A DNA stretch of 64,000 nucleotides from a virus (IMGVR_UViG_3300044591_002420:32001-96000); one strand, 5' to 3'; shown: positions 2,374 to 43,210, counted from the first letter of the stretch. Notes: a model not told the origin generated them from the letters alone. Numbers and translations are program-made.

Positions 2374-2781
2374 ATGGTCAATTTGTCGGGCGATCTATTA
2401 GATGAGGATAGTTTTCCTGAATTTCATCAGGAATTGCTAGACTCCGACACACTTAAAATTTTGGAAAATTACGAAATGGAATCTGTTATGAATTCTGTAG
2501 AAACACAACCCACTATGGGTCAACTGAATGTTGGTCCTAACAATACTTTTGAAGCCACTTTCGCTGAAGCAGGAAGTAGTGCTATTTCTTTTATGTCATA
2601 TATGAATGAACAACTTACGGTGAGATTCCGCAACTCCACACGAGAATATCAATATCTGGTTTCAGACTCAGCTCTGACTGAAATTATGGCTGAAGTTCGG
2701 GCCACTCTTGTTGATGCTGAAGGATCCGTTGGTACTCTTATTCAACGTATGACTCGTCAAAATATCATTCAACTTGTTTGA
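2374..2781 (+). CDS. KTSC-domain-like protein (true start probably downstream)
   Basis: SSAISFMSY..LTVRF...EYQY resembles the KTSC consensus SSxIxxxxY..LxVxF..xYxY. Confidence 0.5.
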   Translation: MVNLSGDLLDEDSFPEFHQELLDSDTLKILENYEMESVMNSVETQPTMGQLNVGPNNTFEATFAEAGSSAISFMSYMNEQLTVRFRNSTREYQYLVSDSALTEIMAEVRATLVDAEGSVGTLIQRMTRQNIIQLV

Positions 2782-2928
2782 GGAACTTATGTATCATAAA
2801 AAAATTGAAACACAGAAAGAAGCACTAGATTTTATCAGAAAGGGTGAAGTGGTAGATCTTCTTGATCGTCTTGATCGTCTTGTTGAGATGATTGGTGAAA
2901 AAGGAAGTGAAGAGTCCGAAGGAGAGAC

Positions 2929-3477
2929 TTGATGACTAAGTTCAAAAAAGGTGATATTGTTATCTCAAAAAATGGTAAATATCCAGCTAGAGTAACCGAG
3001 AATAATTCTTGGGGTGGTTATACTAATATTGTTTATTTACACAACAATTCATATAGCACTCTAGTAACAGACAATCTTATTCTTTATAATGAATCCGAAA
3101 ACATGACCACTGAAACTCAAATGCTTTATCAATTCAAAACCGAAGATGGTTCTACTGCCTACGGCACACACATTGGAACCAATTCTAAAAATCTTTGGTT
3201 AATGGAAGAAAAGGGCTCAGGTAGAGTTCTTACCATTGATCCGAAAGATGCCGAAGAGGTACTTCCTTATACCTTTAGTGTCAAAATGCGAGGTAATACT
3301 ACTCACTATATCGGTGAAGAGGGTATGGTTACCACCGGAGATGTTCTTCTATACACCGGAGGTGACCATCCTGAAATCGCTACTGTTACTGCCATTAACA
3401 CAAAAAATAAATCCGCTCGTGCCAAATTCACTGGTCGTAGAGTGGTCACCGAACAACTTACCCAAACTGCTGTATAA
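2929..3477 (+). CDS. Hypothetical protein
   Basis: 182-aa ORF in the + strand gene run. Confidence 0.7.
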   Translation: MMTKFKKGDIVISKNGKYPARVTENNSWGGYTNIVYLHNNSYSTLVTDNLILYNESENMTTETQMLYQFKTEDGSTAYGTHIGTNSKNLWLMEEKGSGRVLTIDPKDAEEVLPYTFSVKMRGNTTHYIGEEGMVTTGDVLLYTGGDHPEIATVTAINTKNKSARAKFTGRRVVTEQLTQTAV

Positions 3478-3948: not shown

Positions 3949-4245
3949 ATGGTTTATGATGTGGCAACTCTAGAACAACTAGAGACCGATAAGAACTCTT
4001 ATATTCGTGTGGGTGTATCAAAAAATCCAAACACACCACCAACAACATTAGAACAACTAGCGACCGATGATTATTGGTATGTTCGTTGGAATGTAGCACT
4101 ACATCCAAACACACCACCAAAAGCGCTAGAAATTCTAGTGAGCGATGAGGATCCATATGTTCGTATATGGCTAGCACAAAATCCAAACACTCCACAATAC
4201 ATCAAGAAGTATCTTAAACTTCAAGAACAACTATCTAGATTATGA
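3949..4245 (+). CDS. LRV-repeat protein
   Basis: Three 26-aa repeats plus cap PQYIKKYLKLQEQLSRL. Confidence 0.9.
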   Translation: MVYDVATLEQLETDKNSYIRVGVSKNPNTPPTTLEQLATDDYWYVRWNVALHPNTPPKALEILVSDEDPYVRIWLAQNPNTPQYIKKYLKLQEQLSRL

Positions 4246-4702
4246 AGCGTTATACCGTTAGAAGTCACACTGAATCATTTCAAACAGATTCTTTAGATGA
4301 AGCACATTCTGTAATGGAATCAATGGCATCTTATTATGGATGTGCATCTATTATTGATAATACAACAAATAAGATCATAGAGGAGTGGACGGTATGAAAA
4401 CTGTCCCTTTTCGTCCCTAACCACACCTTGTCTACCCTATAGTAATTCTAGTTAAATTGACTTCATGAACATCTTAAATGACAATCAGACCAAGCTTGTT
4501 GAAAATGCTCTCATGCGCCTCAAAGCGCATCACAATCAAGTTGTTTCACGACATTATCTTGATGTTGATGCGAACGAAACAGTGCAAGCGTCTGTTGAGA
4601 TCGTTAAAGAAATTGACATTCTTCTCTCTTGTTTTTCAAATCATTCACCTCTTTACATTCTAAACGAAGATACCGACGAAAAGATTTTGGCTGATATTTT
4701 TC

Positions 4703-5164
4703 ATGATCTATAAAAACGAGGAATTTATTGTTCCTTCGGTTTCTTTTTTGAAGAATAGAATCTTGGATCAAGTTATTGCTGTAGCTATGGCTAGCAACGG
4801 TCCCAAACGAATGGGTGCAATTTTACTTAAAAAAAACAAAGTCGTCGCTGCTGCTTGTAACAACTATGAAAAATCTGATGCCTTTCAATTCAGAATCTCT
4901 AACAGAGCATCCTTGGTCTACAACAAACCAGAATACTCTAAACGAGTTTTTGGACATGCTGAAACACTTGCCATCAAACAAATCAGAAATGGTGATGCCG
5001 ACACGATTGTTGTTTGTCGTCTTTCGGGGAAGTATTCTTCCAGAAAGTTGAGAATGGCAAGACCTTGTAGAATCTGCACTCATCTAATTTTGAATTTTTA
5101 TTCGTCCATTAGACACATTCATTATTCAACTGAAAACGGATTTCTTTACGAGTATTGGCAATGA
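4703..5164 (+). CDS. Zn-dependent cytidine/dCMP deaminase-fold protein
   Basis: HAE and PCxxC (RPCRIC) motifs, upstream GAIL. Confidence 0.8.
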   Translation: MIYKNEEFIVPSVSFLKNRILDQVIAVAMASNGPKRMGAILLKKNKVVAAACNNYEKSDAFQFRISNRASLVYNKPEYSKRVFGHAETLAIKQIRNGDADTIVVCRLSGKYSSRKLRMARPCRICTHLILNFYSSIRHIHYSTENGFLYEYWQ

Positions 5165-6078: not shown

Positions 6079-6498
6079 ATGGAAATCTCTGACCTTGAAG
6101 ATAAAATTTCAGATCTAGATAATAAAATTGACGAACTTCGTTTTGAGCTTAACCAGCAAGTAGGATTTATTATTGGTGCTATATCTGAATTATCAGAGGA
6201 TTACATAACAACCGCGATCGTCAATAACTTATTAGCACATTCAATCCAAGAATATATCATTGATAATTATAAGAAATTTAGCAAAAAAATTGTTTCTACA
6301 ATTCTAGAATCAGAATATTTTTATGCCAATAATCTTTTCCGATATAATTATCATTCAAACATAACACACGATTCTAAAATATTAGAAGAATATCAATATT
6401 TGGAATACGTTCTAGACAATCCCAACTTAAGTCCATATAATAAAAAAGAAATTAAAAAACGTATAGCGAAACATAAAAGAGATCTCAAAAAACAATGA
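6079..6498 (+). CDS. Hypothetical coiled-coil protein
   Basis: ATG at 6079 (the ORF-track start at 6025 overlaps the tRNA). Confidence 0.65.
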   Translation: MEISDLEDKISDLDNKIDELRFELNQQVGFIIGAISELSEDYITTAIVNNLLAHSIQEYIIDNYKKFSKKIVSTILESEYFYANNLFRYNYHSNITHDSKILEEYQYLEYVLDNPNLSPYNKKEIKKRIAKHKRDLKKQ

Positions 6499-7262
6499 CT
6501 GAAGATGAATTGGGTAATAAGCTAAAACAACTAGAACAACAAGAAGCCGGAAGAAAAGCCGATCCTTATCTTCCTCTTATGGCAAGACTTGATGGTAACT
6601 GTTTTAGTAACTTTACAAGATCACTTGAAAGACCTTTTGATAAAAGATTTTGTGATCTTATGCTAGAAACAACAAAATACCTTGTTGAAGAAAGCGAAGC
6701 ATTATTGGGTTATTGTCAATCCGATGAGATTACTCTTTATTGGTATTTGGATAAACAAAACTTTTCTAATAGAGAATTTTGGTTTGGTGGAAAGTTTTAT
6801 AAAATTGCATCTATTTTATCATCAAAAGCTAGTTCTTTCTTCTCTGGTAATCTAGCTAATTATCTACCTGAGAAAGTCGGGGTCTATCCTGCATTTGATG
6901 CAAGAGTCTGGAGTGTTCCTGATCTTCATTGGGTTTATGAGAATTACTTATGGAGATTTAAAGATGCGAGAAAGAATTCTGTTTCCATGTATGCAAGAAA
7001 TTTCTTTTCTCATTCTCAACTTCATAAAAAATCTGGAGAGAAGATGAAAGAGATGCTAAGAGAAAATGGCACACCTTGGGAAGAATTGCCTGAATTTTTT
7101 AAGAGTGGCTCTTATGTTAAAAGACAGAGAATTTTGTTATCACTGGATGATTCTAGATGGACTGATGTTCCACTGCAATATAGACCAACAAAACCAATAG
7201 TAAGAACAGTTGTATCTCATTGGATCCCAGAAGAAACAGTAAATCCTAGCTGGTTTATGTGA
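6495..7262 (+). CDS. tRNA(His) guanylyltransferase / Thg1-like 3'-5' polymerase
   Basis: RLDG..FS.FT, QSDEI, FDAR, WR..DA.KNS motifs. Confidence 0.9.
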   Translation: MTEDELGNKLKQLEQQEAGRKADPYLPLMARLDGNCFSNFTRSLERPFDKRFCDLMLETTKYLVEESEALLGYCQSDEITLYWYLDKQNFSNREFWFGGKFYKIASILSSKASSFFSGNLANYLPEKVGVYPAFDARVWSVPDLHWVYENYLWRFKDARKNSVSMYARNFFSHSQLHKKSGEKMKEMLRENGTPWEELPEFFKSGSYVKRQRILLSLDDSRWTDVPLQYRPTKPIVRTVVSHWIPEETVNPSWFM

Positions 7263-9282: not shown

Positions 9283-9885
9283 ATGACGATCACTACAGAA
9301 CAAGTTAAGACTCTCAGAGAGAAAACCGGAGCCGGAATGATGCTCTGTAAAGAAGCACTCAAATCTTCTTCAGGAGATCAAGAAGGTGCAATACTTTGGC
9401 TCAGACAAAAAGGAATTACACTAGCCGATGGTAAGATCGGTAGATCTACTACCGAAGGTGCAATCGGAACTTATATTCATACTGGCAGCCGAGTTGGTGT
9501 GATGGTTGAGATTCTTTGTGAGACAGATTTTGTTGCAAAGACACCGGAATTTCAAGAACTGATTCGTAACATTGGAATGCAGATTGCGGCATGTCCTAAT
9601 GTTCAAGGTATCAGTCTAGATGATATTCCTCAGAGTTTTATTGATTCTGAAACTGCTCTTGAAATGAGTAAAGCTGATCTGGCCAATAAACCAGAAGCAA
9701 TTCGTCAAAAGATTGTAGAAGGAAGAGTTGGTAAGAAACTCAAAGAAGTTACGCTTATGAGCCAACCTTATGCTAAAGATTCTACCATTACAGTTGAAAC
9801 ATTAATCAAGAACTTTTCTGCTCAATTTGGTGAGAATATTGTTGTTAGACGCTTTGTGCGTTTTGTACTTGGTGAGGATCTATGA
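9283..9885 (+). CDS. tsf: Translation elongation factor Ts (short, cyanobacterial-type)
   Basis: VKTLREKTGAGMMLCKEAL, CETDFVA, RFVRFVLGE; 200 aa. Confidence 0.96.
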   Translation: MTITTEQVKTLREKTGAGMMLCKEALKSSSGDQEGAILWLRQKGITLADGKIGRSTTEGAIGTYIHTGSRVGVMVEILCETDFVAKTPEFQELIRNIGMQIAACPNVQGISLDDIPQSFIDSETALEMSKADLANKPEAIRQKIVEGRVGKKLKEVTLMSQPYAKDSTITVETLIKNFSAQFGENIVVRRFVRFVLGEDL

Positions 9886-10074
9886 TCATTATGGAACATG
9901 AACTTTTTACTATGTGTGAGAAACTTACTAATAAATTATGGGAATATTGCAATTGTCATCCGACACACGATACTGATTTATTAGTTAAAGAATCAAAAGA
10001 ATTAATGGTTTCTTATTATGAGAAACGCATTTCTGAATTAAAAAATGAAATTATTCGTATTTAAGGTATAAACT

Positions 10075-10473
10075 ATGGGAACTAGAGCTGATTTTTACGT
10101 TGGAGTTGGACCTAACGCCGAATGGTTAGGAAGTGTTGCATGGGATGGTTATGAATGGCAAGTAAAACCAGATTGCTCTTTAATGAAAGCGAAAACTGAA
10201 GAAGAATTTCGTAGTGCTGTTAAGTTAATTTCAGAAAAACGAGATGATTGGACATCAGTAGAACAAGGTTGGCCGTGGCCATGGAACGATAGTTTTACTA
10301 CTGATAGAACCTATGCATTTGTTGATGGAAAAACTCAAGACTATAATTGGGGCTGTTTGCCAGTGGATGACGAAGATGAAGACACTGTAAAAACTGTAGA
10401 GTGGCCAAATATGGAATCAAGAAAAAATGTCAATTATGGTAATCGTTCGGGACTTCTTATTTTTTCTGTGTGA
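10075..10473 (+). CDS. Hypothetical phage protein
   Basis: MGTRADFYVG... Trp-rich ORF. Confidence 0.7.
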   Translation: MGTRADFYVGVGPNAEWLGSVAWDGYEWQVKPDCSLMKAKTEEEFRSAVKLISEKRDDWTSVEQGWPWPWNDSFTTDRTYAFVDGKTQDYNWGCLPVDDEDEDTVKTVEWPNMESRKNVNYGNRSGLLIFSV

Positions 10474-10491
10474 TACTCTATCTTGTTTCCA

Positions 10492-10547
10492 GCCAATCCT
10501 GAAACCGTCCACTGCCTCTTGACAAACTAGCTCCTCCATGCTAGATT
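10492..10547 (+). promoter_or_regulatory. Sigma70-type promoter of the vWA/ncRNA operon, with upstream palindromic motif
   Basis: TTGACA 10519-10524, 17 bp, TG-c-TAGATT ending 10547; motif right arm AACCGTC at 10503-10509. Confidence 0.75.
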
Positions 10548-10558
10548 GAACAAGTTCA

Positions 10559-10622
10559 AAGATGAGACAGCAATTCCCTTCGCTCTTTCCTTTTAAGAAA
10601 ACCAAGCCAAAAAACTCATCTT
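10559..10622 (+). ncRNA. CAGCA-module hairpin H1 with tRNA-Lys(UUU)-like loop
   Basis: Stem AAGATGAG/CTCATCTT then ACAGCAA; inner TTTC-CTTTTAA-GAAA. Confidence 0.65.
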
Positions 10623-10643
10623 GTTTAATCACCCAAACTAATT

Positions 10644-10853
10644 ATGAATCCAACCCAATCACTAGAGCCTCATCAACAACGAATGATTGATGAGCATTCC
10701 GAACTTTCTCAACGTCTTTCTGATCTTCGCCGCTTTTTTGATAATCCTTATTTTAAAGATCTACCTGAAGCCGAACGAGTGCGCATGAAAGCTCAAGAGC
10801 TTTTTATGACTGGTTACGAAAACATCTTGAGCCAAAGAATCGCCGCTATCTGA
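10644..10853 (+). CDS. Small helical phage protein (crAss001_48-like family)
   Basis: HQQRMIDEHSEL..L..F...F..L...E...Q...M..Y..IL..RI pattern. Confidence 0.6.
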   Translation: MNPTQSLEPHQQRMIDEHSELSQRLSDLRRFFDNPYFKDLPEAERVRMKAQELFMTGYENILSQRIAAI

Positions 10854-10888
10854 ATTAAGTTAATTCCGCACCGATAACACACATTAAC

Positions 10889-12364
10889 TTGGAGAATACC
10901 ATGACTTTTATGAACGCTCTTTCTACCGAAATGAATAATACGATCACCGCAAATGGTGCAAAGGCATACGAATCAACTCAAAACGAATGTCTTGATCTCT
11001 ACGGTTCCATTGGTGCTTGTCGTAATAATCTCACTCTAGCAGAGCGTCTATTCTTTGCGGCATACGAACAACATCCAGAAACGGCAGTACGAATTCTGTT
11101 CTATTCTCGTGATATTCGCGGAGCAAGTCAAGGTGAACGCGCAGTCTTCCGAGCACTGATGCCTAAACTTGCTCATAAGAATCCAAGAATCGCAACACGT
11201 TTGGTGTCTTTGATTCCTTATTATGGTCGCTGGGATGATCTTCTGTGTCTAGAGAATACTCCAGTTTGGAATGAAGTCTTGAAAACCATTGAAACTCAAC
11301 TGAAGACGGATATGAGTAGCGATAAGACTTCGCTGCTTGCCAAATGGCTTCCTTCTATCAATGCATCATCTAAAGATAGTAAGCGACTGGGTAGGCTGAT
11401 CGCAGCTCATATGGGTTGGTCTGAACGTCAATATCGCAAAAATCTTTCTTCACTTCGGGCTAAGATCAAGATTGTTGAAACTCCGATGTGTGCGAAAGAA
11501 TGGAGTGTTATTGATTACGAGCATCTTCCTTCTCGTGCAGCATTCATGTATCGCAAGGCATTTAAGAAGCATGATGAGACTCGTTATTCAGATTATCTCT
11601 CACGAGTAGAGAAAGGTGAAGCTAAGATCAATGCGGGAACACTGTATCCTTATGATATTGTTAATAAGTATCTTTTTCAAGGTGCTCGTAATGATAAGAC
11701 TCTTGAACTTCAATGGAATGCCTTGCCCAATTACATGGAAGATCTAGAATTTAATGGTCTTGTTGTTGCCGATGTTTCTGGTTCTATGATGAATAATAGT
11801 GGTATGCCAATGGCAGTTTCCATCTCGCTTGCAATGTATATTGCTGAGCGTAATCCATCTAAGATCTGGAAGAATAAATTTCTGACTTTCTCTCAAGCTC
11901 CAAAACTTCAAACTATTCTAGGCAACAACATTGAAGAAAAAATTCGTTATCTACAAGGAGCTGAATGGGGTATGAATACTGATCTGATTGCAGTCTTTAA
12001 TACCATTCTGAAAGCTGCAACTGAGAATAATGTCGCTGCTAAAGACATGCCCCAAAAACTGATTATTGTTTCCGATATGCAATTTGATGTGGCATGTAGA
12101 TCCAATAAGCGTACTAACTTTGAGCAAATTCAAAAAATGTATCGGAAGTCTGGTTATGAGATGCCTCAGCTTATTTTCTGGAATGTAAACGCAAGTGCTA
12201 ATGTTCCGATTCAAGCTGATGACACTGGAACCGCATTAGTTTCTGGTTGTAGTCCTGCTATTCTGAAGTCTGTTCTGAGCGGTAAAATCGTATCTCCTGT
12301 GGATGTTATGATGGATAACCTTTATGTAGAACGTTATGCTCCGATTGGTGAAGTTTTTGCCTGA
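10889..12364 (+). CDS. Ro60/TROVE-like helical repeat + vWA protein (DUF2828-like)
   Basis: T.NGA..Y.ST, RDIRG..GER, YGRWDDL, LLAKWLPS, MIDAS DVSGSM, TFS, SDMQFD, IFWNV. Confidence 0.85.
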   Translation: MENTMTFMNALSTEMNNTITANGAKAYESTQNECLDLYGSIGACRNNLTLAERLFFAAYEQHPETAVRILFYSRDIRGASQGERAVFRALMPKLAHKNPRIATRLVSLIPYYGRWDDLLCLENTPVWNEVLKTIETQLKTDMSSDKTSLLAKWLPSINASSKDSKRLGRLIAAHMGWSERQYRKNLSSLRAKIKIVETPMCAKEWSVIDYEHLPSRAAFMYRKAFKKHDETRYSDYLSRVEKGEAKINAGTLYPYDIVNKYLFQGARNDKTLELQWNALPNYMEDLEFNGLVVADVSGSMMNNSGMPMAVSISLAMYIAERNPSKIWKNKFLTFSQAPKLQTILGNNIEEKIRYLQGAEWGMNTDLIAVFNTILKAATENNVAAKDMPQKLIIVSDMQFDVACRSNKRTNFEQIQKMYRKSGYEMPQLIFWNVNASANVPIQADDTGTALVSGCSPAILKSVLSGKIVSPVDVMMDNLYVERYAPIGEVFA

Positions 12365-12377
12365 TTGATAAATTCTT

Positions 12378-12427
12378 AAGATGGTTCAGCAATTCTCCTA
12401 TGTTTTGGGTACATAAAAGACCATCTT
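12378..12427 (+). ncRNA. CAGCA-module hairpin H2 with tRNA-Pro(UGG)-like loop
   Basis: Stem AAGATGGT/ACCATCTT, TCAGCAA; inner TATGT-TTTGGGT-ACATA. Confidence 0.7.
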
Positions 12428-12434
12428 GTTTAAC

Positions 12435-12550
12435 GGGCGGGTAGCTCAGTTGGTAGAGCAGTAGAGCACTTAAAACAAATCTAGTTTAGATTTTAACAGC
12501 ATTATAAATACAAAATCTCCGGGTCCTAGGTTCAAGTCCTAGTCCGCCCA
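12435..12550 (+). ncRNA. tRNA-like RNA T1 with permuted CAGCA module replacing the anticodon loop
   Basis: Acceptor GGGCGGG/TCCGCCC-A, D arm GCTC/GAGC, T arm CTAGG-TTCAAGT-CCTAG; ~50-nt anticodon region containing AAATCTA-GTT-TAGATTT-TAACAGCA. Confidence 0.75.
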
Positions 12551-12551
12551 T

Positions 12552-12598
12552 TAGATGATTCAGCAATTCTTTCTTTGCTAGGAACAAAAAATCATCTA
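12552..12598 (+). ncRNA. CAGCA-module hairpin H3
   Basis: Stem TAGATGATT/AATCATCTA, CAGCAA; inner TTCT-TTGCTA-GGAA. Confidence 0.7.
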
Positions 12599-12627
12599 GT
12601 CTTTTCATATTTTTATACTCAAACACA

Positions 12628-12681
12628 AAGATAGTTCAGCAAATTTAACACGAATGCCATCATGTTCATCACAACTATCTT
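12628..12681 (+). ncRNA. CAGCA-module hairpin H4
   Basis: Stem AAGATAGTT/AACTATCTT, CAGCAA; inner AACACGA-ATGCCA-TCATGTT. Confidence 0.7.
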
Positions 12682-12688
12682 GTTTACT

Positions 12689-12803
12689 GTCGTGTTCGTC
12701 TAACTTGATAGGACGCCTATAAAACAAATCTCGTTGAGATTTTAACAGCATTACAAATTTCCTTGTCCCGGAGGTAATCTAGGTTCAAATCCTAGACACG
12801 GCG
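12689..12803 (+). ncRNA. tRNA-Asp(GUC)-like RNA T2 interrupted by ~42-nt permuted CAGCA module
   Basis: Acceptor GTCGTGT/ACACGGC-G, T arm CTAGG-TTCAAAT-CCTAG; removing the insert restores CCTCC-TTGTCCC-GGAGG. Confidence 0.75.
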
Positions 12804-12804
12804 T

Positions 12805-12851
12805 TAGATGATTCAGCATTTATTTCTCTGCTAAGAAAACAAAATCATCTA
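12805..12851 (+). ncRNA. CAGCA-module hairpin H5 containing tRNA-Ser(GCU)-like loop sequence
   Basis: Stem TAGATGATT/AATCATCTA, CAGCAT; inner TTTCT-CTGCTA-AGAAA. Confidence 0.7.
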
Positions 12852-12878
12852 GTTAAACAACTCTTTCAACTCTCAAAA

Positions 12879-13124
12879 ATGTTCACTATCATCGTTGATT
12901 TACTCTCATCACTAATTGTATCAGTTATTCTTTTCTTTAGTGGCTTAAAATTGGGAGCTGATGCTATGAGGGACATGACTGTTATCTACTGTAATGAAAA
13001 TCCCACAATTTGTCAACAAGAATACAAGAATACGAAATCTCAGTATCCAAATCTTAATTTTACTGTAGAAGCTCCTTCTATTGGTCAAGAAAAACCCAAA
13101 GTGAACATTATTGATACAAAATAA
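12879..13124 (+). CDS. Small membrane-anchored hypothetical protein within the RNA array
   Basis: Hydrophobic N-terminal 25 aa. Confidence 0.65.
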   Translation: MFTIIVDLLSSLIVSVILFFSGLKLGADAMRDMTVIYCNENPTICQQEYKNTKSQYPNLNFTVEAPSIGQEKPKVNIIDTK

Positions 13125-13129
13125 CCAAC

Positions 13130-13203
13130 AGCGGGCGAGTGTAACGGTAGTCACGTCGGGCTCATAACCCGGAGGAATATGGGTTCAATTCCCAGGTCCG
13201 CCA
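13130..13203 (+). tRNA. tRNA-Met(CAU), initiator-type
   Basis: Anticodon arm TCGGG-CTCATAA-CCCGG (three G-C pairs), 1:72 mismatch (A/C), T loop TTCAATT. Confidence 0.88.
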
Positions 13204-13204
13204 T

Positions 13205-13261
13205 TAGATGATTCAGCAATTTCAAAACTTTCTTATTGGTTTAGAAAACAAAAATCATCTA
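13205..13261 (+). ncRNA. CAGCA-module hairpin H6
   Basis: Stem TAGATGATT/AATCATCTA, CAGCAA; inner TTTCT-TATTGGTTT-AGAAA. Confidence 0.7.
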
Positions 13262-13268
13262 GCTCATT

Positions 13269-13388
13269 AGAAGAGTAGCCCAATTGGTTGAGGCGAGCTT
13301 AGAAACAAAAAGCATCTTGTAAAAGATGATTCAGCATTAAAAATTCTAAGGAAAAGCTTTGATGTTGGTTCAAATCCAGCCTCTTCTA
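13269..13388 (+). ncRNA. tRNA-like RNA T3 with permuted CAGCA module in extended anticodon arm
   Basis: Acceptor AGAAGAG/CTCTTCT-A, D stem GCC/GGC, T arm GTTGG-TTCAAAT-CCAGC; arm CTTAGAA..CATCTT-GTAA-AAGATG-ATTCAGCA..TTCTAAG. Confidence 0.75.
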
Positions 13389-13463
13389 TCTGGATAAATA
13401 ATATCCAACAGACTTTAACACAACAAAAACGATCACTTAGTCTGTGTGATCTCAAGGAAACAA

Positions 13464-14183
13464 ATGATGTACTCAAATCAATTTGCCGCAACAATCAAGG
13501 TAAACAATAAAATTCTCCGGGAGTTTGGAGACACTGTTTATCTTCCCTTCGGTTCCGAATATCAAATTCGTCTTAAAAATCTCAATACAACAAGAGCCAA
13601 AGTAACAGTTGAAATTGACGGACAAAATGTTACTGATGGTGGTCTTGTTATTGATTCATTCCAAACTGTTGATCTAGAACGATTCATTCGTAATGGTAAT
13701 CTTTCCGAAGGAAATCGCTTTAAATTTATTGAACGAACTTCTAAAATTGAAGATCATCGTGGAATTAAACTAGAAGATGGTTTGATTACAATTCGTTATG
13801 AGTATGAGATGTCTTATGCTCCTTTATACGATTTTAAATATCCAAAAGCACAAAAAAATAATTTTATTAATGAATGTTCATATCGCAGTATGAACATCAA
13901 TTCGGGACCAACAGCTAAGTTAACCTCTCAGACTGAAACTGGAATTACTGTAGAGGGTTCCAAGAGTAATCAAAAATTTAATACTACTTCTTGGAGAGGA
14001 TCAATTGGTGGCTCTCATGTGATGGTTATTAAACTTTTGGGTGAAACAAAAGAGAACAAAAAAGTAAGAGAACCTGTTACCATCAAGACTAAACTAGAGT
14101 GTAAAACTTGCGGAACAACTAATCCTGTAACCTCAAAGTTCTGTTCTGAGTGTGGAACTTCTTTAGAGATTGTAGGTGGATAA
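13464..14183 (+). CDS. Beta-rich protein with C-terminal zinc ribbon
   Basis: LPFGSEYQIRLKN N-terminal domain; CKTCG...FCSECG; AAGGA upstream of ATG 13464. Confidence 0.75.
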   Translation: MMYSNQFAATIKVNNKILREFGDTVYLPFGSEYQIRLKNLNTTRAKVTVEIDGQNVTDGGLVIDSFQTVDLERFIRNGNLSEGNRFKFIERTSKIEDHRGIKLEDGLITIRYEYEMSYAPLYDFKYPKAQKNNFINECSYRSMNINSGPTAKLTSQTETGITVEGSKSNQKFNTTSWRGSIGGSHVMVIKLLGETKENKKVREPVTIKTKLECKTCGTTNPVTSKFCSECGTSLEIVGG

Positions 14184-14189
14184 GAAACC

Positions 14190-14215
14190 GGCACCCAGAA
14201 ATCATTCCGGGTGCC
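14190..14215 (+). terminator. GC-rich hairpin closing the vWA/ncRNA operon
   Basis: GGCACCCAGAA-ATCA-TTCCGGGTGCC; weak U tract. Confidence 0.4.
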
Positions 14216-14248
14216 CTATACTATTTTTAGACAACGAAGAATTTTATT

Positions 14249-14764
14249 ATGAATCAACAGCGCCAAGATTTTTACCACAAGCTCAACGAAAGTCTTGAAG
14301 AAGATAGAAAATATTTTCTTGACATTTTGACTAGAACCGATAATTCTGCTAAACTACTTCAATGGATTATTGATAATAATATCAATCCCTATGCAGTGCT
14401 TCCATTTTATCTCGCGGGATCTTATTATGGTTTTGAAGCTTTTATCAGTCTTTACACATCTCTCACTTATCATGAGAAACATGCAGAATTCACTTATCTT
14501 AATATCAAAAGAAAGAATCCAAATGGACACGAATTTGAACTTGGACCTAAAGTCGTTCTAAGACATCCATCCGATTCAGATTTTAAAGAAGGTGTTATAC
14601 GAGATCTAGATTTAAAAGAAGTAGATTCTTTTGATGGTGAAGTATTCGTTTATGAGTTTGAGATTCTTAAGAGTTTAGATGAATTTATTGAAACTTTTAT
14701 CCGAGTAGAAAAAGAATATCTAAATCTCTATGAAGAGATGGATCATATTATTGGACAATTTTAG
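14249..14764 (+). CDS. Hypothetical protein
   Basis: 171-aa ATG ORF. Confidence 0.7.
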   Translation: MNQQRQDFYHKLNESLEEDRKYFLDILTRTDNSAKLLQWIIDNNINPYAVLPFYLAGSYYGFEAFISLYTSLTYHEKHAEFTYLNIKRKNPNGHEFELGPKVVLRHPSDSDFKEGVIRDLDLKEVDSFDGEVFVYEFEILKSLDEFIETFIRVEKEYLNLYEEMDHIIGQF

Positions 14765-23544: not shown

Positions 23545-23616
23545 CTGGATGTAAGTCAGTGGTAGACGGCACCGTTTGGGGCGGTGAAGACGTTGGTTCA
23601 AATCCAACCATCCAGA
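23545..23616 (+). tRNA. tRNA-Pro(UGG)
   Basis: Acceptor CTGGATG/CATCCAG-A, anticodon arm CACCG-TTTGGGG-CGGTG, T loop TTCAAAT. Confidence 0.92.
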
Positions 23617-23637
23617 CTAACAATGAACTTCTTAATT

Positions 23638-24687
23638 ATGAAAAAATACGATGCCGTCGTCTTTATCGGACGATTTCAACCTTTCCATAATGCTCATTTG
23701 GAGATTGTAAAAACCGCCTATGAGTACACCGATGATGTTATTCTCATTAGAGGATCACAATTCAAGCCAGTAACATACAAGAATCCTTTTCAATCGGACG
23801 ATTTTCAATACGAATCTTCCTATTTTAAAGATGCGATTGTAGATTCTGTTAAAGACATTATTGATCAAATCAGTCAGAATCAAGAAGAACAACGAAAGAG
23901 TTTTAGTATTATTCCAGTAAGAGATAATCCAGATGATAATGTTTGGGCACAGAATGTCTCACGAAAAGTAGACGAAGCAACGATTTATTCTAAAAATGTT
24001 GCTCTCATCGGATGTAAGAAAGATGATACTTCTTTTTATCTTGATATGTTTCCTCAATGGGAATTTATTGAGCTTCCACTTAAACATAATTTAAGCGCAA
24101 CACAGATTAGAGAACTCTACTTCGTAGAAAATCCCAATCTTGATTTTTTGAAAGCTGTTGTTCCGAAACCAGTTTTCAATTTTCTTGATAACATGAAGAA
24201 TAGTTCTTGGCATCAACATGTAGTTAATGAGCGTAGATGCGAAGAAAAATATAAACAAGTATATGTGAATTTACCATTTCCGCCCACGTTTATTACCGTT
24301 GATCCTGTTGTCTTTTGTTCGGGTCATGTTCTTATGATTCGGCGAGGTGCCTATCCCGGTAAAGGATTACTCGCTCTTCCGGGGGGATTTCTGGATGCAA
24401 ATACCGATCCGAGTCTAGAATATGCGATGTTCCGAGAGCTGAAAGAAGAAACAGGACTCTCTCCTGAAAATTTTGTTATCAAATCAACTCGCTACTTTGA
24501 TTCTCCTAAACGTAGCACCAGAGGTCGCACAGTAACACACGCATTCAATATTGTTCTATCTGATAAAATTCCACCTGAAGTTCAAGGTGCATCAGATGCA
24601 ACAGAAGCACTATGGATTCCTTTAGATCAGTTAAAAACACAAAAATGTTTTGAAGACCACTACTACATTATTCAATCTTTTCTTTGA
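23638..24687 (+). CDS. nadM: Bifunctional NMN adenylyltransferase / ADP-ribose pyrophosphatase (NadM-Nudix)
   Basis: FIGRFQPFHNAH, SATQIR, Nudix box GG......REL.EETGL, FEDHY.II. Confidence 0.92.
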   Translation: MKKYDAVVFIGRFQPFHNAHLEIVKTAYEYTDDVILIRGSQFKPVTYKNPFQSDDFQYESSYFKDAIVDSVKDIIDQISQNQEEQRKSFSIIPVRDNPDDNVWAQNVSRKVDEATIYSKNVALIGCKKDDTSFYLDMFPQWEFIELPLKHNLSATQIRELYFVENPNLDFLKAVVPKPVFNFLDNMKNSSWHQHVVNERRCEEKYKQVYVNLPFPPTFITVDPVVFCSGHVLMIRRGAYPGKGLLALPGGFLDANTDPSLEYAMFRELKEETGLSPENFVIKSTRYFDSPKRSTRGRTVTHAFNIVLSDKIPPEVQGASDATEALWIPLDQLKTQKCFEDHYYIIQSFL

Positions 24688-34488: not shown

Positions 34489-35952
34489 ATGGAAACCCGA
34501 GAATCACGTTTAAATAAAATCAATAACATAAATTGTCCATATGCTGTTAAATTTAATCCTAGCAGTAGAGTGATTTATTTACAAGAAAACCATAAACACT
34601 TGGCACCCGGAGCCGAATGTCAAACAGAAGTTAGTATAGCGGGGAGAGTTATATCAAAAAGAGTTTTTGGTAAACTAGCCTTTTTTACATTATTGGACGA
34701 AACAGGAACAATTCAAGCTTATATTGATAAAGGTTACCTAGACAGTTTTAATAATTTATATTTTTCTGAATTAACAACATTGGTTGATATCGGTGACTGG
34801 ATTGGCCTTAGCGGACATCTTAAAGGAACCGAAAAAGGAGAATTATCAGTAAAGGTTAGAACTTGGCAGATGCTTTCTAAGGCACTTCAATCTTTACCTG
34901 ATAAATGGCATGGATTAATTGACGTTGAAAAACGTTACAGACAAAGATATCTTGATTTAATTAGTAATCCGAAAAATAAAGAAATCTTTTATAAGAGATC
35001 TAAAATCATAAAGACTATCCGAAATTTTTTAGATGAACAGAATTTCTTAGAAGTAGAAACTCCTATTCTTCAAACTGAAACGGGTGGAGCAGATGCTAGA
35101 CCCTTTCTGACGCATCATAACACTTTAGATATCCCTCTTAATTTGAGGATTGCGACGGAACTTCACCTGAAAATGATGATTGTTGGGGGATTTGAAAGAA
35201 TTTATGAAATTGGTAGAATTTTTAGAAATGAAGGAATAAGTACAAAACACAATCCAGAATTCACCTCTATTGAAATTTATAGTGCTTTTTCTGATTATTA
35301 CGACATGATGGATTTAGTACAAAAACTTATCTCTGAATGTTGTAAACAAGTATGTGATTCTGAGATTATTGAATATCAAGGCAACTTAATAGATTTTTCC
35401 TTTGGATTTCGTCGTGTTTCAATGCATGAAATTGTAGAGGAAAAAACAGGTTTAAATTTTAATAATTTCAATACTTGCCAAGAAGCTATTATTGAATTGA
35501 ATAAAATGGGAATTGAACCTAGATCAAGTGATTCTTTGGGGCGACTTCTTAATGATGTTTTTGAGCAAAAAGTGGAAAATGAATTAATTCAACCGACAAT
35601 TGTTATGGATTATCCGATAGAGATATCTCCTCTTGCCCGGCCTCATAGAAGCAAATCTGGTTTGGTTGAAAGATTTGAACTTTTTGTTGCAGGAAGAGAA
35701 TTGGCGAATGCATTTAGTGAATTGATTGATCCGATAGACCAAAGAGCCAGATTTGAAGAACAACAACAAAGAAAAATAAATGGAGATTTAGAGGCACAAA
35801 ATATAAATGAATTATTCTTAGAAGCACTTGAGGTAGGAATGCCGCCAACTGGAGGACTAGGTATAGGAATCGATAGATTAGTTATGTTACTAACTGATAG
35901 TGCATCAATTCGTGAAGTTATCGCTTTCCCTTTATTGAAACCCACCAATTGA
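34489..35952 (+). CDS. lysS: Lysyl-tRNA synthetase (class II)
   Basis: [24 protein letters not shown]...[27 protein letters not shown]. Confidence 0.97.
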
Positions 35953-39491: not shown

Positions 39492-40022
39492 GTGAATAAA
39501 GAACTTATTGATCATCTAAAATCAAGACATCTAAATTTAGAACTTCATCGTCCAATTCTTGATGAAGAACTTTCAATAGCAACCTTTCTTTTTTATAATC
39601 TATCAGAACAACTTGTTGGTTATCAACAATACAATCCCAATGGTGATAAAAAGATCTTCAACTCAAAATTAGGTGGTCGTTATTACACTTATCGTAAACA
39701 ACCAACAATTGCTATTTGGGGCCTAGAATCATATTACATTTCAGATGGACCAATTTTTATCACTGAGGGTATTTTTGACGCAGCAAGATTTACTGAAAGA
39801 AATCAGACTGCATTTGCTGTTTGTAGTAATGATCCACCGAAGGATTATAAAAATTGGTTTGATACATTACCGAGAAAAGTTATTGCGATTTGTGATAATG
39901 ATCCTGCCGGTGAAGAACTGGCTAAGTTTGGAGATTATTATGAAATTGTTCCCGACAACAAAGATGTAGGAGAATCTTCTGAAGAATATGTTCGTTATCT
40001 TATTGAGAAATACACAAAATGA
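39492..40022 (+). CDS. Stand-alone TOPRIM (primase-like) protein
   Basis: ITEGIFDA, CDND.AG, KDVGE. Confidence 0.8.
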   Translation: MNKELIDHLKSRHLNLELHRPILDEELSIATFLFYNLSEQLVGYQQYNPNGDKKIFNSKLGGRYYTYRKQPTIAIWGLESYYISDGPIFITEGIFDAARFTERNQTAFAVCSNDPPKDYKNWFDTLPRKVIAICDNDPAGEELAKFGDYYEIVPDNKDVGESSEEYVRYLIEKYTK

Positions 40023-41794
40023 CTATTATTAAAAACTATCGCACTCATAATTGCGGTCAATTGACATCTAAAAATGTTAATGAGATCGTGACACTTTCTG
40101 GATGGATTGATCGTAGACGCGATCATGGTAAATTGATTTTTATTGATCTTCGTGATAGCAGCGGAGTGATTCAATTAGTTTTATCTAATGAAAATTCTGA
40201 ACGTCTGAGAGTTGAGACTGTTATTCTGATTACAGGTAATGTTATTTCCAGACCGATTGAGAATATCAATAATGAAATTTCAACAGGAGAGATAGAAGTA
40301 GAAGTGAGCGATTTAATTATTCTAAACGAGGTTAAACACGTTCTACCATTTTCTGTTTCAAGAAATGAAAGAACTGTTGTGAATGAAGAGTTACGTTTAC
40401 AGAATCGTTATCTTGATCTTAGAAGTAAACGCATGAGTGATAATATACGAATGCGCCATAAAGTAACAAGATCCATTCGTAATTTCTTAGAATCGGAAAA
40501 TTTTATTGAAGTTGAAACACCTATTCTTAATCGTTCAACTCCAGAAGGTGCAAGAGAATACTTGGTACCAAGTAGAATCTATAAAGGAGAATGGTTCTCT
40601 CTTTCTCAATCACCACAACTGTTTAAACAGATGCTGATGGTGGGTGGAATTGAAAGATATTATCAAATTGCACGATGCTTCAGAGATGAATCTTTAAGAG
40701 TTGATCGACAACCAGAATTTACACAAATTGATTTAGAGATGAGCTTCATGTCTCAAGATGAAATTCTTTCTCTTAGTGAGAGAATGATTTCTACTATCTG
40801 GAAAGAAGCAAAAGGAGAAGAATTGTCCATTCCTTTTTCTAGAATGAGTTGGAAAGAATCAATGGAGAGATATGGAACAGATCGGCCAGATATTCGCTAT
40901 GGATTAGAATTATCCGATGTTTCAAAGATCTTTTCTGATTGTGGTTTTAAGGTATTTTCCAATGTGATTAAAAGTGGTGGAGTTGTTAAATGTATTACCA
41001 TCAATTCTAACAACGAATCAATTACAAAATCTCGTCTTAAAATTGGAGGAGATTTAAATGATTTGGCGATAAATTTGGGTTCCGGTGGACTCGCATATAT
41101 CAAAATAAATGACGACCATGAATTTGATTGTATCAATGCCATTAAAGACAATTTAACAGAATTCCAAAAAACTGAACTGTTAGAAATAACAGAAGCTACA
41201 TCTGGAAGCTTGATTATATTTTGCGCTGGTACTTCTGATGTCGTCAATAAAACACTAGGCAAAATTCGTCAAGTTCTCGCAGAGGAATTGAATCTCATTA
41301 CGAATATGAATTCCTTTTTGTGGATTGTTGATTTTCCTATGTTTGAATATAATCCAATTGAGAATAAATTGTGTTCACTCCATCATCCTTTTTGTGCTCC
41401 AAATGAAGACGATTTAGGAACCGAACCCGATTTATGGTCTGAGCGAATTGTTCACTGCCGAGCACAATCTTATGATTTGGTTCTCAATGGATACGAATTG
41501 GGTGGTGGATCATTACGAATTCATGATTCCGAATTACAGAGAAAAGTTTTACAGATTCTCGGTCTTTCTGAAGAAAAGATTGATGATCAATTTGGATTTC
41601 TTTTAAATGCATTGGATTCTGGCGCTCCTCCTCATGGCGGATTGGCTTTTGGTTTAGATAGAATTGTTATGCTTCTTTTGAATGAAGAATCCATTCGTGA
41701 TGTTATTGCCTTTCCGAAAAGCTCACAAACTAGATGTCTACTAACGGGTGCTCCTTCAACTGTTTCAGATAATCAACTTCTTGAATTTGAATAG
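40019..41794 (+). CDS. aspS: Aspartyl-tRNA synthetase
   Basis: RTHNCG, RRDHG.LIFIDLRD, STPEGAR, QSPQLFKQ, FRDE..R.DRQPEFTQ, HHPF, GAPPHGG.AFGLDR. Confidence 0.97.
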   Translation: MTIIKNYRTHNCGQLTSKNVNEIVTLSGWIDRRRDHGKLIFIDLRDSSGVIQLVLSNENSERLRVETVILITGNVISRPIENINNEISTGEIEVEVSDLIILNEVKHVLPFSVSRNERTVVNEELRLQNRYLDLRSKRMSDNIRMRHKVTRSIRNFLESENFIEVETPILNRSTPEGAREYLVPSRIYKGEWFSLSQSPQLFKQMLMVGGIERYYQIARCFRDESLRVDRQPEFTQIDLEMSFMSQDEILSLSERMISTIWKEAKGEELSIPFSRMSWKESMERYGTDRPDIRYGLELSDVSKIFSDCGFKVFSNVIKSGGVVKCITINSNNESITKSRLKIGGDLNDLAINLGSGGLAYIKINDDHEFDCINAIKDNLTEFQKTELLEITEATSGSLIIFCAGTSDVVNKTLGKIRQVLAEELNLITNMNSFLWIVDFPMFEYNPIENKLCSLHHPFCAPNEDDLGTEPDLWSERIVHCRAQSYDLVLNGYELGGGSLRIHDSELQRKVLQILGLSEEKIDDQFGFLLNALDSGAPPHGGLAFGLDRIVMLLLNEESIRDVIAFPKSSQTRCLLTGAPSTVSDNQLLEFE

Positions 41795-41959: not shown

Positions 41960-43210
41960 ATGACCAAAGAAGCAACTTTTGAGACTGCCGATTTCTTTAT
42001 TGTTCCCGAAGAAGTTTCTTACTTCTCTACTCCAAACTTTACCTCATACTATAATAACATGCGTACAGATTATGAGGCAAAAGAACATACTTTCAAAAAA
42101 GCAGTCATTGCTGGAGCTGTTATTCTGGCTGCTTCAAAGGCACAACGTCTTCATACAGTTTGGCCCGATATTCCTAATGACTATTTTCGGAATTATTGGC
42201 CTCTTCTTGAACTTCCGATTGAGCTTGAACTACTTAATGATGAGCTGGTCGCCAACTGGTTTCGGGAGAACATGAGCTATCGTACATTTTTCAATATGAT
42301 TTATCGTCATGCTCGTCGTTATGGAAAGGCTCTTTATCAAGAAGATGAGATTCCAAATAAATTGACCGAGATTAACTTTGATGATATTCTTAAATCTGGT
42401 ACAGGTACAGTAGAAAGTATTTTGGATCAGTTGGCACTCAAAGAAGAAGCGATTTATGATAATTATATTAATGGAAATATGGAAGATTCTGATTCAAATC
42501 AAGAATCTTTCCGTGCAATCAGCATTCTTTATCATATCGCGGGACATCCTAACACTTCCTCTGAGACATTGGCGCGGTTGGCATCCAATGACGATTATCC
42601 ATCATATGTGTATCGGCAGGTTGTATTGAATCCGAACACACCAGAAGATATTCGGCTCAGTCTTATTATTGAACGGGGTGTTGAAGATGTGAATTCTCAG
42701 CTCAAAGATACACTTAGTCAGCTCCAAAAAATGCTAAAAGCTGGCGATACCATTGTTCCAGAAACTCGTAAAGATGATGGAACAATTAAGAAGTGGCGTT
42801 GGCGTCTTATTGATTTTCACGATAACATCAGCTATCTTTATCTGATGCGAGAGATTAAAAATGTTGAGTTTACCAACAATACCATCAAAAATCAGTATCA
42901 AGAAGGCTCCTGGAATGTATATCAACCCAAAGATAGCGTGGCTCTAGCAATGTGGGCACAAAAAGTCAAGAATTGTATTCGTTCACGAGAAGATAATGTT
43001 CACAGTGGGGATTCAGAAATCGTATTCATTGAGCGTAATGGTGTTCCCGCTTATACTGTTGAAGTTCGTCCGGGAGCACCTAAACGTCGCAATCTCTCAG
43101 AACTTAATATCAAAGAGATTCAGGCATTTGGTGCTCGCACCGGCACCACTCGTGACAATCAAGGAGAGATCTTGAATATGATTAAGCGTGCGATGGAAGC
43201 AAATGTATGA
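41960..43210 (+). CDS. PcfJ-like domain protein with an embedded LRV-like unit
   Basis: C-terminal FHD, L..W...V.NCI, YTVEV; internal HPNTSSETLARLA..VVLNPNTP. Confidence 0.5.
   Translation: MTKEATFETADFFIVPEEVSYFSTPNFTSYYNNMRTDYEAKEHTFKKAVIAGAVILAASKAQRLHTVWPDIPNDYFRNYWPLLELPIELELLNDELVANWFRENMSYRTFFNMIYRHARRYGKALYQEDEIPNKLTEINFDDILKSGTGTVESILDQLALKEEAIYDNYINGNMEDSDSNQESFRAISILYHIAGHPNTSSETLARLASNDDYPSYVYRQVVLNPNTPEDIRLSLIIERGVEDVNSQLKDTLSQLQKMLKAGDTIVPETRKDDGTIKKWRWRLIDFHDNISYLYLMREIKNVEFTNNTIKNQYQEGSWNVYQPKDSVALAMWAQKVKNCIRSREDNVHSGDSEIVFIERNGVPAYTVEVRPGAPKRRNLSELNIKEIQAFGARTGTTRDNQGEILNMIKRAMEANV

Follow-up and report, generated by a model that had tools for sequence, protein, structure and literature searches.

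The closest described system to the locus analysed here is that of the Ro60 protein with its Y RNAs. In the account of bacterial and phage YrlA and YrlB by Chen et al. (2014, PMC4201824), Y RNAs adjoin Ro60 genes, carry a conserved motif in their 5' strand and, in the instance of YrlA, mimic tRNA. Two Y-like RNAs encoded by Thermus phage phiLo, Yrl1 and Yrl2, are bound by the Ro60 of that phage, as is the host PNPase (PMC12135203), and the Ro60-like gp130 of Bas63, encoded ahead of tRNA genes, counters the ppl defence, the authors of that preprint guessing that some of the neighbouring 'tRNA genes' are Y RNAs (PMC11482910). The stretch under study, hereafter the window, comprises 64,000 nt of a 125-kb viral record (IMGVR_UViG_3300044591_002420:32001-96000), with all coordinates being counted from the window's start. 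Between 10519 and 13388, where every feature lies on the + strand, six hairpins (H1 to H6) and three tRNA-like genes (A to C) are grouped around the open reading frame (ORF) of a 487-amino-acid protein, as given below with the bit scores of the hairpins under R1, the covariance model of their family. We consider it probable that these hairpins are Y-RNA-like partner RNAs of a phage Ro60-like protein, and that they display parts of tRNAs.

10519..10547, + strand: sigma-70-like promoter, TTGACA-17-TAGATT, 12 nt ahead of H1
10557..10625, + strand: H1, in the 5' leader of the operon; R1 37.8 bits, E 4.6e-6; handle helix AAGAUGAG 10559-10566 with CUCAUCUU 10615-10622, CAGCAA 10568-10573, G 10623
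10644..10853, + strand: small ORF of 69 amino acids, crAss001_48 family (Pfam PF21825, E 1.3e-18)
10901..12364, + strand: ORF of the Ro60-like protein, 487 amino acids, DUF2828 plus DUF7788 (Pfam)
12376..12430, + strand: H2, ending 4 nt ahead of tRNA-like A; R1 45.3 bits; handle helix 12377-12386 with 12420-12427, CAGCAA 12387-12392, G 12428
12435..12550, + strand: tRNA-like A; Rfam tRNA 44.1 bits, with a 52-nt insert
12550..12601, + strand: H3, starting directly after the discriminator of tRNA-like A; R1 46.6 bits; handle helix AGAUGAUU 12553-12560 with AAUCAUCU 12590-12597, CAGCAA 12561-12566, G 12599
12626..12684, + strand: H4; R1 39.9 bits; handle helix 12629-12636 with 12673-12680, CAGCAA 12637-12642, G 12682
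12689..12803, + strand: tRNA-like B, read by eye and fold
12803..12854, + strand: H5, starting directly after the discriminator of tRNA-like B; R1 46.6 bits; handle helix 12806-12813 with 12843-12850, CAGCAU 12814-12819, G 12852
12879-13124, + strand: ORF of 81 amino acids, no Pfam family, between H5 and tRNA-Met within the RNA array
13130..13203, + strand: ordinary tRNA-Met (CAU); ARAGORN, and Rfam 38.7 bits
13203..13264, + strand: H6, starting directly after the discriminator of tRNA-Met; R1 54.2 bits; handle helix 13206-13213 with 13253-13260, CAGCAA 13214-13219, G 13262
13269..13388, + strand: tRNA-like C; Rfam tRNA 36.0 bits, with a 57-nt insert; contains a match to AGAT-N4-CAGCA

The likeness to the Ro60/Y-RNA system lies in the encoding of a solenoid-plus-vWA ring protein beside several small RNAs, as in PMC4201824 and PMC12135203, and in the design of the RNAs themselves: as in the Y RNAs described there, the RNA ends form a stem, a short conserved purine-rich motif occupies the 5' strand at the junction of stem and loop, and a part of the molecule mimics tRNA. 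Unlike Y RNAs, the phage elements match no Rfam Y-RNA model and can carry as their variable part, or cargo, an isolated anticodon-arm look-alike; judged by the curated RNA models they fall outside the system, and their presumed binding motif is a different one.

The Ro60-like protein

The protein encoded at 10901-12364 combines an alpha-solenoid ring with a vWA domain; the latter contains a MIDAS motif, whose residues D291, S293, S295, T360, and D392 were invariant across 46 homologs. The AlphaFold2 model obtained with those homologs had a predicted local distance difference test score (pLDDT) of 89.9 and a predicted template modelling score (pTM) of 0.89; and a Foldseek search gave 12 matches at E <=0.001, with all 11 among the matches listed being Ro60 chains. 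In VIA-align, the alignment to the Ro60 of Xenopus had a Z of 23.3 and a root-mean-square deviation of 3.8-4.0 over 407-417 residues, with human Ro60 following at Z 22.2 and the Ro60 of phage phiLo at Z 13.7-14.7, while the best unrelated rows were vWA domains alone, at Z 10.7. As modelled, then, the 487-amino-acid protein is a Ro60 by fold only.

NCBIfam held no family for this protein. Its DUF2828 relatives occurred in 696 of 50,697 phage records, including phages of Escherichia, Salmonella, Mycobacterium, Listeria, Staphylococcus, Vibrio, and Bacillus, and amounted to 6,904 cluster representatives at E <=0.001; the protein atlas contained DUF2828 clusters only, mostly viral, and some of the mycobacteriophage relatives were annotated as 'Ro-like RNA binding protein'. 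Proteins of this type are common, and yet no described RNA partner for them turned up in the literature searched; that same search, which did not cover supplementary tables, gave no description of RNAs with a CAGCAA handle such as those considered below.

The handle RNAs and their linkage to the gene

The constant parts of the six hairpins, which together make up the handle, consist of an outer helix formed by (U/A)AGAUnnn with nnnAUCU(A/U)G, a CAGCA(A/U) situated one or two letters past the 5' strand, and an A-rich run ahead of the 3' strand. The middle letters of the helix vary in a compensatory manner among the copies in the window (GAU/AUC, GGU/ACC, AGU/ACU, and GAG/CUC). The exact word AGAT-N4-CAGCA is present seven times in the 64 kb, every time within 10560-13336, namely in the six hairpins and in the insert of tRNA-like C.

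For comparison we used 80 viral loci encoding relatives of the 487-amino-acid protein (95% down to about 40% identity), taken from 513 confirmed viral relatives, and extended this set by Synechococcus phage B3 and Shigella phage Sf13 to give 82 loci (labelled L0xx). Of the 507 CAGCAA words on the gene strand of the 80 viral loci, 159 had a flanking 8-bp helix, versus 15 of 256 on the opposite strand, the corresponding figure for control hexamers being 1-9%. Among 44 well-aligned related elements all eight helix pairs changed on both sides and 95.9% of the cells were paired, which percentage is circular since the elements were picked by a scan requiring the helix, whereas the diversity of the pairs is not. 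The covariation score of these 44 elements was 0.706, as against 0.217 in shuffles and <=0.10 with the partners slid.

From the same 44 elements we built the covariance model R1, H1 being outside the seed. In the window R1 gave six matches, with E from 9e-10 to 5e-6, and no further match reached E 0.01; in the whole 125-kb record it found the same six only, all within 2.7 kb around the Ro60-like gene. The six scaffolded hairpins of the original prediction are accordingly present, all on the + strand, and are exactly those found by R1; the design that it proposed, of a constant handle and a variable part, proved real and extends well beyond the window. When both strands of the 82 loci, 574 kb in all, were searched, R1 made 185 matches at E <=0.01, of which 185 fell on the gene strand, and these were distributed over 73 of the 82 loci holding the Ro60-like gene. 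In five other whole records (87-365 kb), 12 of the 16 R1 matches lay within 5 kb of that gene. When 150 matches were aligned, CAGC and the G after the 3' strand were invariant (150/150), the start having A in 136 and G in 145, and the near end C in 145 and U in 137, followed by the G in 150. The six hairpins are real members of a widespread RNA family with a constant handle; and because that handle is tied to the adjacent gene, the hairpin RNAs are first of all probable partners of the Ro60-like protein.

Being short, repeated, and palindrome-like, the hairpin sequences could also act as DNA, whether as operators that bind a protein, as sites of recombination, or as a miniature mobile element. 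We regard such a role as highly improbable here, given the confinement of 185 out of 185 matches to one strand, the compensatory changes that keep the pairing while the sequence drifts, the conservation of an asymmetric unpaired motif, and the nucleotide-exact fit of the copies to tRNA processing sites.

Another reading concerns H1 alone. The leader of E. coli thrS carries an anticodon-arm mimic that is bound by ThrRS, and H1, which the promoter-like site precedes by 12 nt and the first ORF follows at a distance of 19 nt, might likewise be a cis-regulatory operator in the 5' leader that controls the operon, bound by the Ro60-like protein or by a protein reading anticodons, for example the phage LysRS that the window encodes. 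The element just before the gene is, moreover, the most widely kept one; but the LysRS gene lies 24 kb away and the handle of H1 is identical in kind to those of the free-standing copies, so that we hold this role, although compatible with a partnership between the hairpins and the Ro60-like protein, to be very doubtful.

At the gathering score Rfam returned five matches in the window, all of them tRNA, and 182 in 20 related loci, the top 150 of which were all tRNA or tmRNA. One such locus, L006, has at 2528-2779 a tmRNA gene of the cyanobacterial type (116 bits) directly upstream of the Ro60-like gene. In record G002 (365 kb), from which L040 derives, R1 matches at about 267159, 280607, and 287077 are more than 129 kb from the Ro60-like gene, and these three may constitute a second cluster of such RNAs. 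Shigella phage Sf13 (L082, NC_042017.1), a cultivable, Felix-O1-like phage, has four unannotated elements among tRNA genes just past its DUF2828 gene:

4150-4212: CAGCAA-handle element of Sf13
4313-4371: CAGCAA-handle element of Sf13
4793-4860: CAGCAA-handle element of Sf13
4881-5000: CAGCAA-handle element of Sf13

tRNA parts on the handle

The variable part enclosed by the handle was in many relatives recognizable as a piece of tRNA. The T-loop motif was present in 19 of 162 unique elements. The last of the Sf13 elements (L082, 4881-5000) carries in succession a T arm, an acceptor-like hairpin, and a D arm, which is the permuted tRNA order described for YrlA (PMC4201824). At L055 (2648-2746) a single handle contains a whole tRNA (Rfam 60.8 bits, 2667-2738); its anticodon loop, read by eye as CUUCAAA (UCA), would read UGA, and a possible suppressor tRNA is suggested by that sequence.

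The interiors of the other 143 unique elements, when folded, gave 144 hairpin loops on stems of at least 3 bp. Fifty-one of these loops had 7 nt versus 8.2 ± 2.6 in dinucleotide shuffles, and 27 had the form YU-NNN-R (Y, pyrimidine; R, purine; N, any base) versus 0.73 ± 0.89. Shuffles keeping the polarity from U-rich to A-rich yielded 7.5-7.8 loops of 7 nt and 0.6-0.7 of the YU-NNN-R form, and dereplication to 86 interiors left 31 and 17, respectively, against about 5 and 0.4 in shuffles; in no control did any of 100 shuffles reach the observed values. In the 51 loops, position 1 was a pyrimidine in 45, position 2 a U in 29, and position 6 a purine in 44, the stem having 5 bp in 28. The triplets of the 27 YU-NNN-R loops were GUA (5), GCU, UGA, CUU, and UGG (3 each), UUC, UUG, and GCA (2 each), and, seen once each, UUU, GUU, UCC, and AAU. 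This comparison of homologous hairpins with shuffled controls is the one that the original prediction had proposed, and it gave YU-NNN-R signatures far above the shuffles: the loops of the family are clearly non-random with respect to the anticodon-loop consensus, although U33, the hallmark of that consensus, is far from invariant. Arms of the family can resemble the tRNA anticodon arm in the 5-bp stem, the 7-nt loop, the pyrimidine at position 1, and the purine, mostly A, at position 6; they differ from it in that the U at position 2 is not conserved and, as regards H1, in a stem of 4 bp.

Within the window, two of the six hairpins can offer an anticodon-like arm, in agreement with the earlier statement that H1 and H2 alone are clean. 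The arm UUUC-CUUUUAA-GAAA ascribed to H1 is present at 10586-10600 within the minimum-energy fold, and its loop is identical to the tRNA-Lys(UUU) loop quoted with it. In 17 H1 orthologs the inner stem was 100% paired, with three of five pairs compensatory, whereas the loop consensus was C-N-N-U-U-A-A, with position 2 occupied by G in 6 of them, by U in 5, by C in 4, and by A in 2; agreement with tRNA-Lys is thus a feature of the copy in the window, but is not the conserved property. In most of the H1 orthologs an extra 3-bp stem (UGC...GCA) brackets the inner arm and is followed by ACC(A/C/G); the columns of that stem in the corresponding alignment (A5, 28-30 with 53-55) were 76% paired, and one of the three pairs changed on both sides.

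The arm attributed to H2, UAUGU-UUUGGGU-ACAUA, does exist in the sequence (12399-12415), but the minimum-energy fold in the window pairs CCUA with UGGG instead; in L003, L021, and L023, where the CCUA is changed, the arm is the minimum-energy fold, and in the relative L020 it is missing altogether. The likeness of its loop to that of tRNA-Pro extends to six of the seven letters of UUUGGGG, one letter differing; the stem UAUGU/ACAUA is no copy of the CACCG/CGGUG of tRNA-Pro, and the arm sits on a handle rather than in a tRNA. The display of anticodon loops by H3, H4, H5, and H6 was not borne out: the strings quoted for them are present, but in none of their folds is there a loop of 7 nt. In H3 UUGCU pairs with the AGCAA of the handle, and in H5 UGCU with AGCA; a conserved pairing of this kind was considered and rejected, TTGCT being present in 5 of 162 interiors with 4.2 expected. 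The inner fold of H4 is weak (whole-element z -0.54), and H6 forms an 8-nt loop with z -3.9. By eye, the CUGCUAA of H5 lies within an 8-nt loop on a 4-bp stem, and relatives of H5 (L009 3578, L078 2703) have a 5-bp stem with CUGCUAA.

PrrC, RloC, PARIS AriB, and the retron PtuAB are anticodon nucleases, and the tRNAs for Lys, Glu, Gln, Tyr, and Asn are nuclease targets. Variable hairpins serving mainly as decoys or spare parts for such host enzymes, with or without the Ro60-like protein, would be in keeping with the strong enrichment of anticodon-like 7-nt loops on 5-bp stems in the family, with the CUUUUAA carried by H1, with the correspondence of several YU-NNN-R triplets to the anticodons of those targets, and with the abundance in the window of genes related to tRNA (LysRS, AspRS, EF-Ts, and a Thg1-like protein). 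We nevertheless find this explanation unlikely, in that the U33-like position is U in only 5 of the 17 H1 orthologs and in 29 of the 51 7-nt loops overall, four of the six hairpins in the window lack an anticodon-like arm, and a pure anticodon decoy would not account for the T arms or whole tRNA bodies found on many members of the family. The counteraction of a defence by the Ro60-like protein of Bas63 might be adduced in favour of decoys as well, but the ppl defence countered there is described as an ATPase-PHP protein, not as an anticodon nuclease (PMC11482910, preprint).

In the three tRNA-like genes the handle appears turned inside out. tRNA-like A keeps the acceptor, D, and T arms, while the anticodon loop is replaced by a permuted handle, AUCUAG-UU-UAGAU-UUUAACAGCAUU (CAGCAU at 12497-12502). 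tRNA-like B has a 7-bp acceptor stem (GUCGUGU/ACACGGC), a T arm (CUAGG-UUCAAAU-CCUAG), a long variable region, and a permuted handle (CAGCAU at 12746-12751), with its insert being 92% identical to that of tRNA-like A; it was called neither by the Rfam tRNA model, even at E <=10, nor by ARAGORN, and is visible by eye and fold only. In tRNA-like C a 5-bp stem, CUUAG/CUAAG, leads to a permuted handle with a helix of full length, GCAUCUUG-UAA-AAGAUGAUUCAGCAUU (CAGCAU at 13332-13337). All the inserts are composed of an A-rich part, AUCU(A/C/U)G, a loop of 2-3 nt, (U/G/A)AGAU, and (U)UAACAGCAUU, which amounts to a hairpin-type element whose 3' end runs on into its own 5' end, the variable part being replaced by the body of the tRNA. 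In such phage genes the RNA ends lie at the acceptor stem, whereas YrlA has its ends in the Ro-binding stem (PMC4201824).

The Rfam tRNA model accepts A and C only if inserts of 52 and 57 nt are allowed at the anticodon loop, and neither gene has a readable anticodon loop. ARAGORN calls both in intron mode only (Val aac and Ile gat), taking letters of the handle for the anticodon; and the consideration of A, B, and C as intron-containing working tRNAs found no support, the removal of the module leaving no canonical anticodon loop. In our own scan, tRNA-embedded copies of the handle were present in 31 of the 82 sources; in thirty unique copies, six of six pairs of the permuted-module helix changed on both sides, those copies having been selected by a scan requiring the helix. 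Many of the 112-123 nt matches to 'long tRNA' in the related loci are of this permuted-handle type.

The intimate association with tRNA genes raises the question of whether the hairpins might be only cis-acting punctuation of a tRNA-type operon, acting in processing or stability as endoribonuclease sites or as 3' protective stems and devoid of any role of their own after excision. Their placement fits such a function, a discriminator directly preceding H3, H5, and H6 and a tRNA-like 5' end following H2, H4, and H6 after 4-6 nt, as do the handle of L055 that encloses a whole tRNA and the abundance of tRNA genes in the related loci. The invariant unpaired CAGC and the 3' G (150/150), however, exceed the needs of a stem; stand-alone copies occur directly before the protein gene with no adjoining tRNA (H1 and, in many loci, elements that start at 2400-3000, ahead of a gene beginning near 3001); in tRNA-like genes the anticodon arm incorporates the same module; and the RNA family tracks the Ro60-like gene across records. 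We accordingly judge a mere punctuation to be improbable.

Proposed action and wider comparisons

The explanation that we favour, with the hairpins as Y-RNA-like partners of the Ro60-like protein, would have them act as small non-coding RNAs in which a variable cargo is mounted on a constant handle. Made up of a helix of 7-9 bp that the RNA ends close, the unpaired (U/A)CAGCAA, the A-rich run, and the invariant G, the handle would most likely be where the Ro60-like ring, a product of the same operon, docks, by analogy with the conserved stem of the Y RNAs, which serves Ro60. One transcript from the promoter ahead of H1 would probably give rise to all of the RNAs; the promoter-like site has 10 of 12 consensus letters, with a TG ahead of the second hexamer, and is the sole site of that score on the + strand in 9800-14300, it being a consensus match only, in a region where the total count of such sites was not above that of shuffles. 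From the placement of the hairpins, three of which (H3, H5, and H6) abut a discriminator while three (H2, H4, and H6) stop 4-6 nt short of a tRNA-like 5' end, we infer a release of the RNAs by the tRNA-processing enzymes, the RNase Z and RNase P being those that would make the cuts.

The cargo of the particle would be a piece of tRNA, represented in the window by an anticodon-arm-like hairpin (H1, and possibly H2) or by a poorly structured remnant (H3-H6), and in the relatives by a T arm or a whole tRNA body. Such a particle might offer pieces of tRNA to tRNA-reading proteins (nucleases, modification enzymes, or synthetases), or else bring the ring to them, so that its purpose could be that of a bait for anticodon nucleases, of an adaptor to tRNA enzymes, or of a quality control of the phage's own tRNA-type transcripts. 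As a tentative elaboration, to which we assign little probability, the Ro60-like ring with the CAGCAA-handle RNAs would be a modular bait platform, whose interchangeable cargoes, be they anticodon arms with varying 'anticodons', T arms, or whole tRNA bodies, capture or mislead the host proteins that read or cut tRNA; on such a platform, free anticodon arms may be one half and tRNA bodies devoid of the anticodon loop the other, the two meeting on a single, possibly dimeric, protein.

A number of observations weigh against a partnership of the Ro60/Y-RNA kind. The protein belongs, unlike Ro60, to another sequence family (DUF2828/DUF7788): phmmer and a profile of the 46 sequences, run against the PDB sequences, gave nothing relevant and no Ro60 match at the sequence level, and the Pfam family TROVE was absent at E <=0.01. 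The RNA motif in the window is CAGCAA plus the 3' G, whereas GNCGAA and CGAA, the Y-RNA motifs given in PMC4201824 and PMC12135203, are absent; and Rfam searched at E <=10 over 10400-13500 gave tRNA and three families at chance level, with no other family falling on the elements. Nine of the 82 gene-bearing loci (L063, L064, L066, and L069-L074) contained no R1 match, and in the whole records 4 of the 16 matches were far from the gene (three in one record and one in another). The elements entering the covariation and loop analyses were preselected for the outer helix and include many orthologs, so that the counts are not independent events, though the effect survives dereplication. Finally, H1 is the sole hairpin in the window whose minimum-energy fold contains the arm.

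With the handle defined by its helix, the CAGCAA, and the 3' G, the RNA partner of a DUF2828 protein becomes predictable from sequence, which prediction is directly testable in cultivable phages. The excess of anticodon-arm look-alikes, for its part, provides a concrete hypothesis for phages with tRNA arrays that face host defences or enzymes directed at tRNA. Known phage answers to tRNA-cutting defences include the Pnkp/Rnl1 repair of T4 and nuclease-resistant phage tRNAs; the locus described here shares with these a phage investment centred on tRNA and placed in or beside tRNA gene arrays, but while those answers are enzymes or full tRNAs, here we find small RNAs other than tRNA along with a ring predicted to bind RNA.

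The closest RNA design is that of the Dictyostelium Class I RNAs (RF01414), which, in the study by Kjellin et al. (2021, PMC7919456), start with AAG, end with CUGU, and have a stem formed by the RNA ends, an 11-nt motif adjoining the 5' strand, and an otherwise variable sequence; that study reports none outside the Dictyostelia and names the RNA-recognition-motif (RRM) protein Rnp1A as a binder. The phage RNAs resemble those there described in their length of about 60 nt, the AAG start, the short covarying end stem, the variability of the middle, the A-rich run, and the C-U-(N)-G with which they end. The Class I motif, ..UUACAGCAA(U), follows directly upon the 5' strand, the motif in the phage window being shorter (UUCAGCAAU); and the Class I RNAs, unlike the phage RNAs, are eukaryotic and have their own promoter. 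The Rfam consensus of RF01414 reads GaUcuCCUUACAGCAAUua...AAAAA...GagAuCUG, and its best sub-threshold matches in the phage records fall on handle elements. Membership in RF01414 was rejected, with the best relative scoring 25.7 bits against a gathering score of 41.5 and the copies in the window giving no match at E <=10; in control genomes, matches at E <=1 were present in 7 of 14, none of them over the cut-off. The likeness is therefore a resemblance in design, as distinct from membership or from a demonstrated common descent. As such it offers a lead on the Class I RNAs, reported as unique to social amoebae in PMC7919456; and if the resemblance did reflect common descent, it would supply a partner-protein family for those unexplained RNAs.

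As to the surroundings of the array, the ORF of the crAss001_48 family was rejected as a conserved third component, a homolog being found in only 3 of the 82 related loci. The Pfam scan, which covered 16 of the 124 ORFs in the window having at least 90 amino acids, revealed neither RtcB nor Pnkp nor another repair ligase or kinase. The 125-kb record, which according to CheckV is about half complete, contained only three ordinary tRNA genes (Arg tct, Met cat, and Pro tgg) and, in that state of completeness, no gene for tRNA-Lys. The window encodes LysRS and AspRS, both above the NCBIfam cut-offs, as well as EF-Ts, a Thg1-like protein, and a cytidylyltransferase-NUDIX fusion:

34489-35952, 40019-41794, 9283-9885, 6495-7262, 23584-24687: genes for LysRS, AspRS, EF-Ts, the Thg1-like protein, and the cytidylyltransferase-NUDIX fusion, listed jointly

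In addition, ORFs with leucine-rich-repeat-variant or HEAT repeats were recognized by Pfam at 41960-43210, 50481-51521, and 58022-58867.

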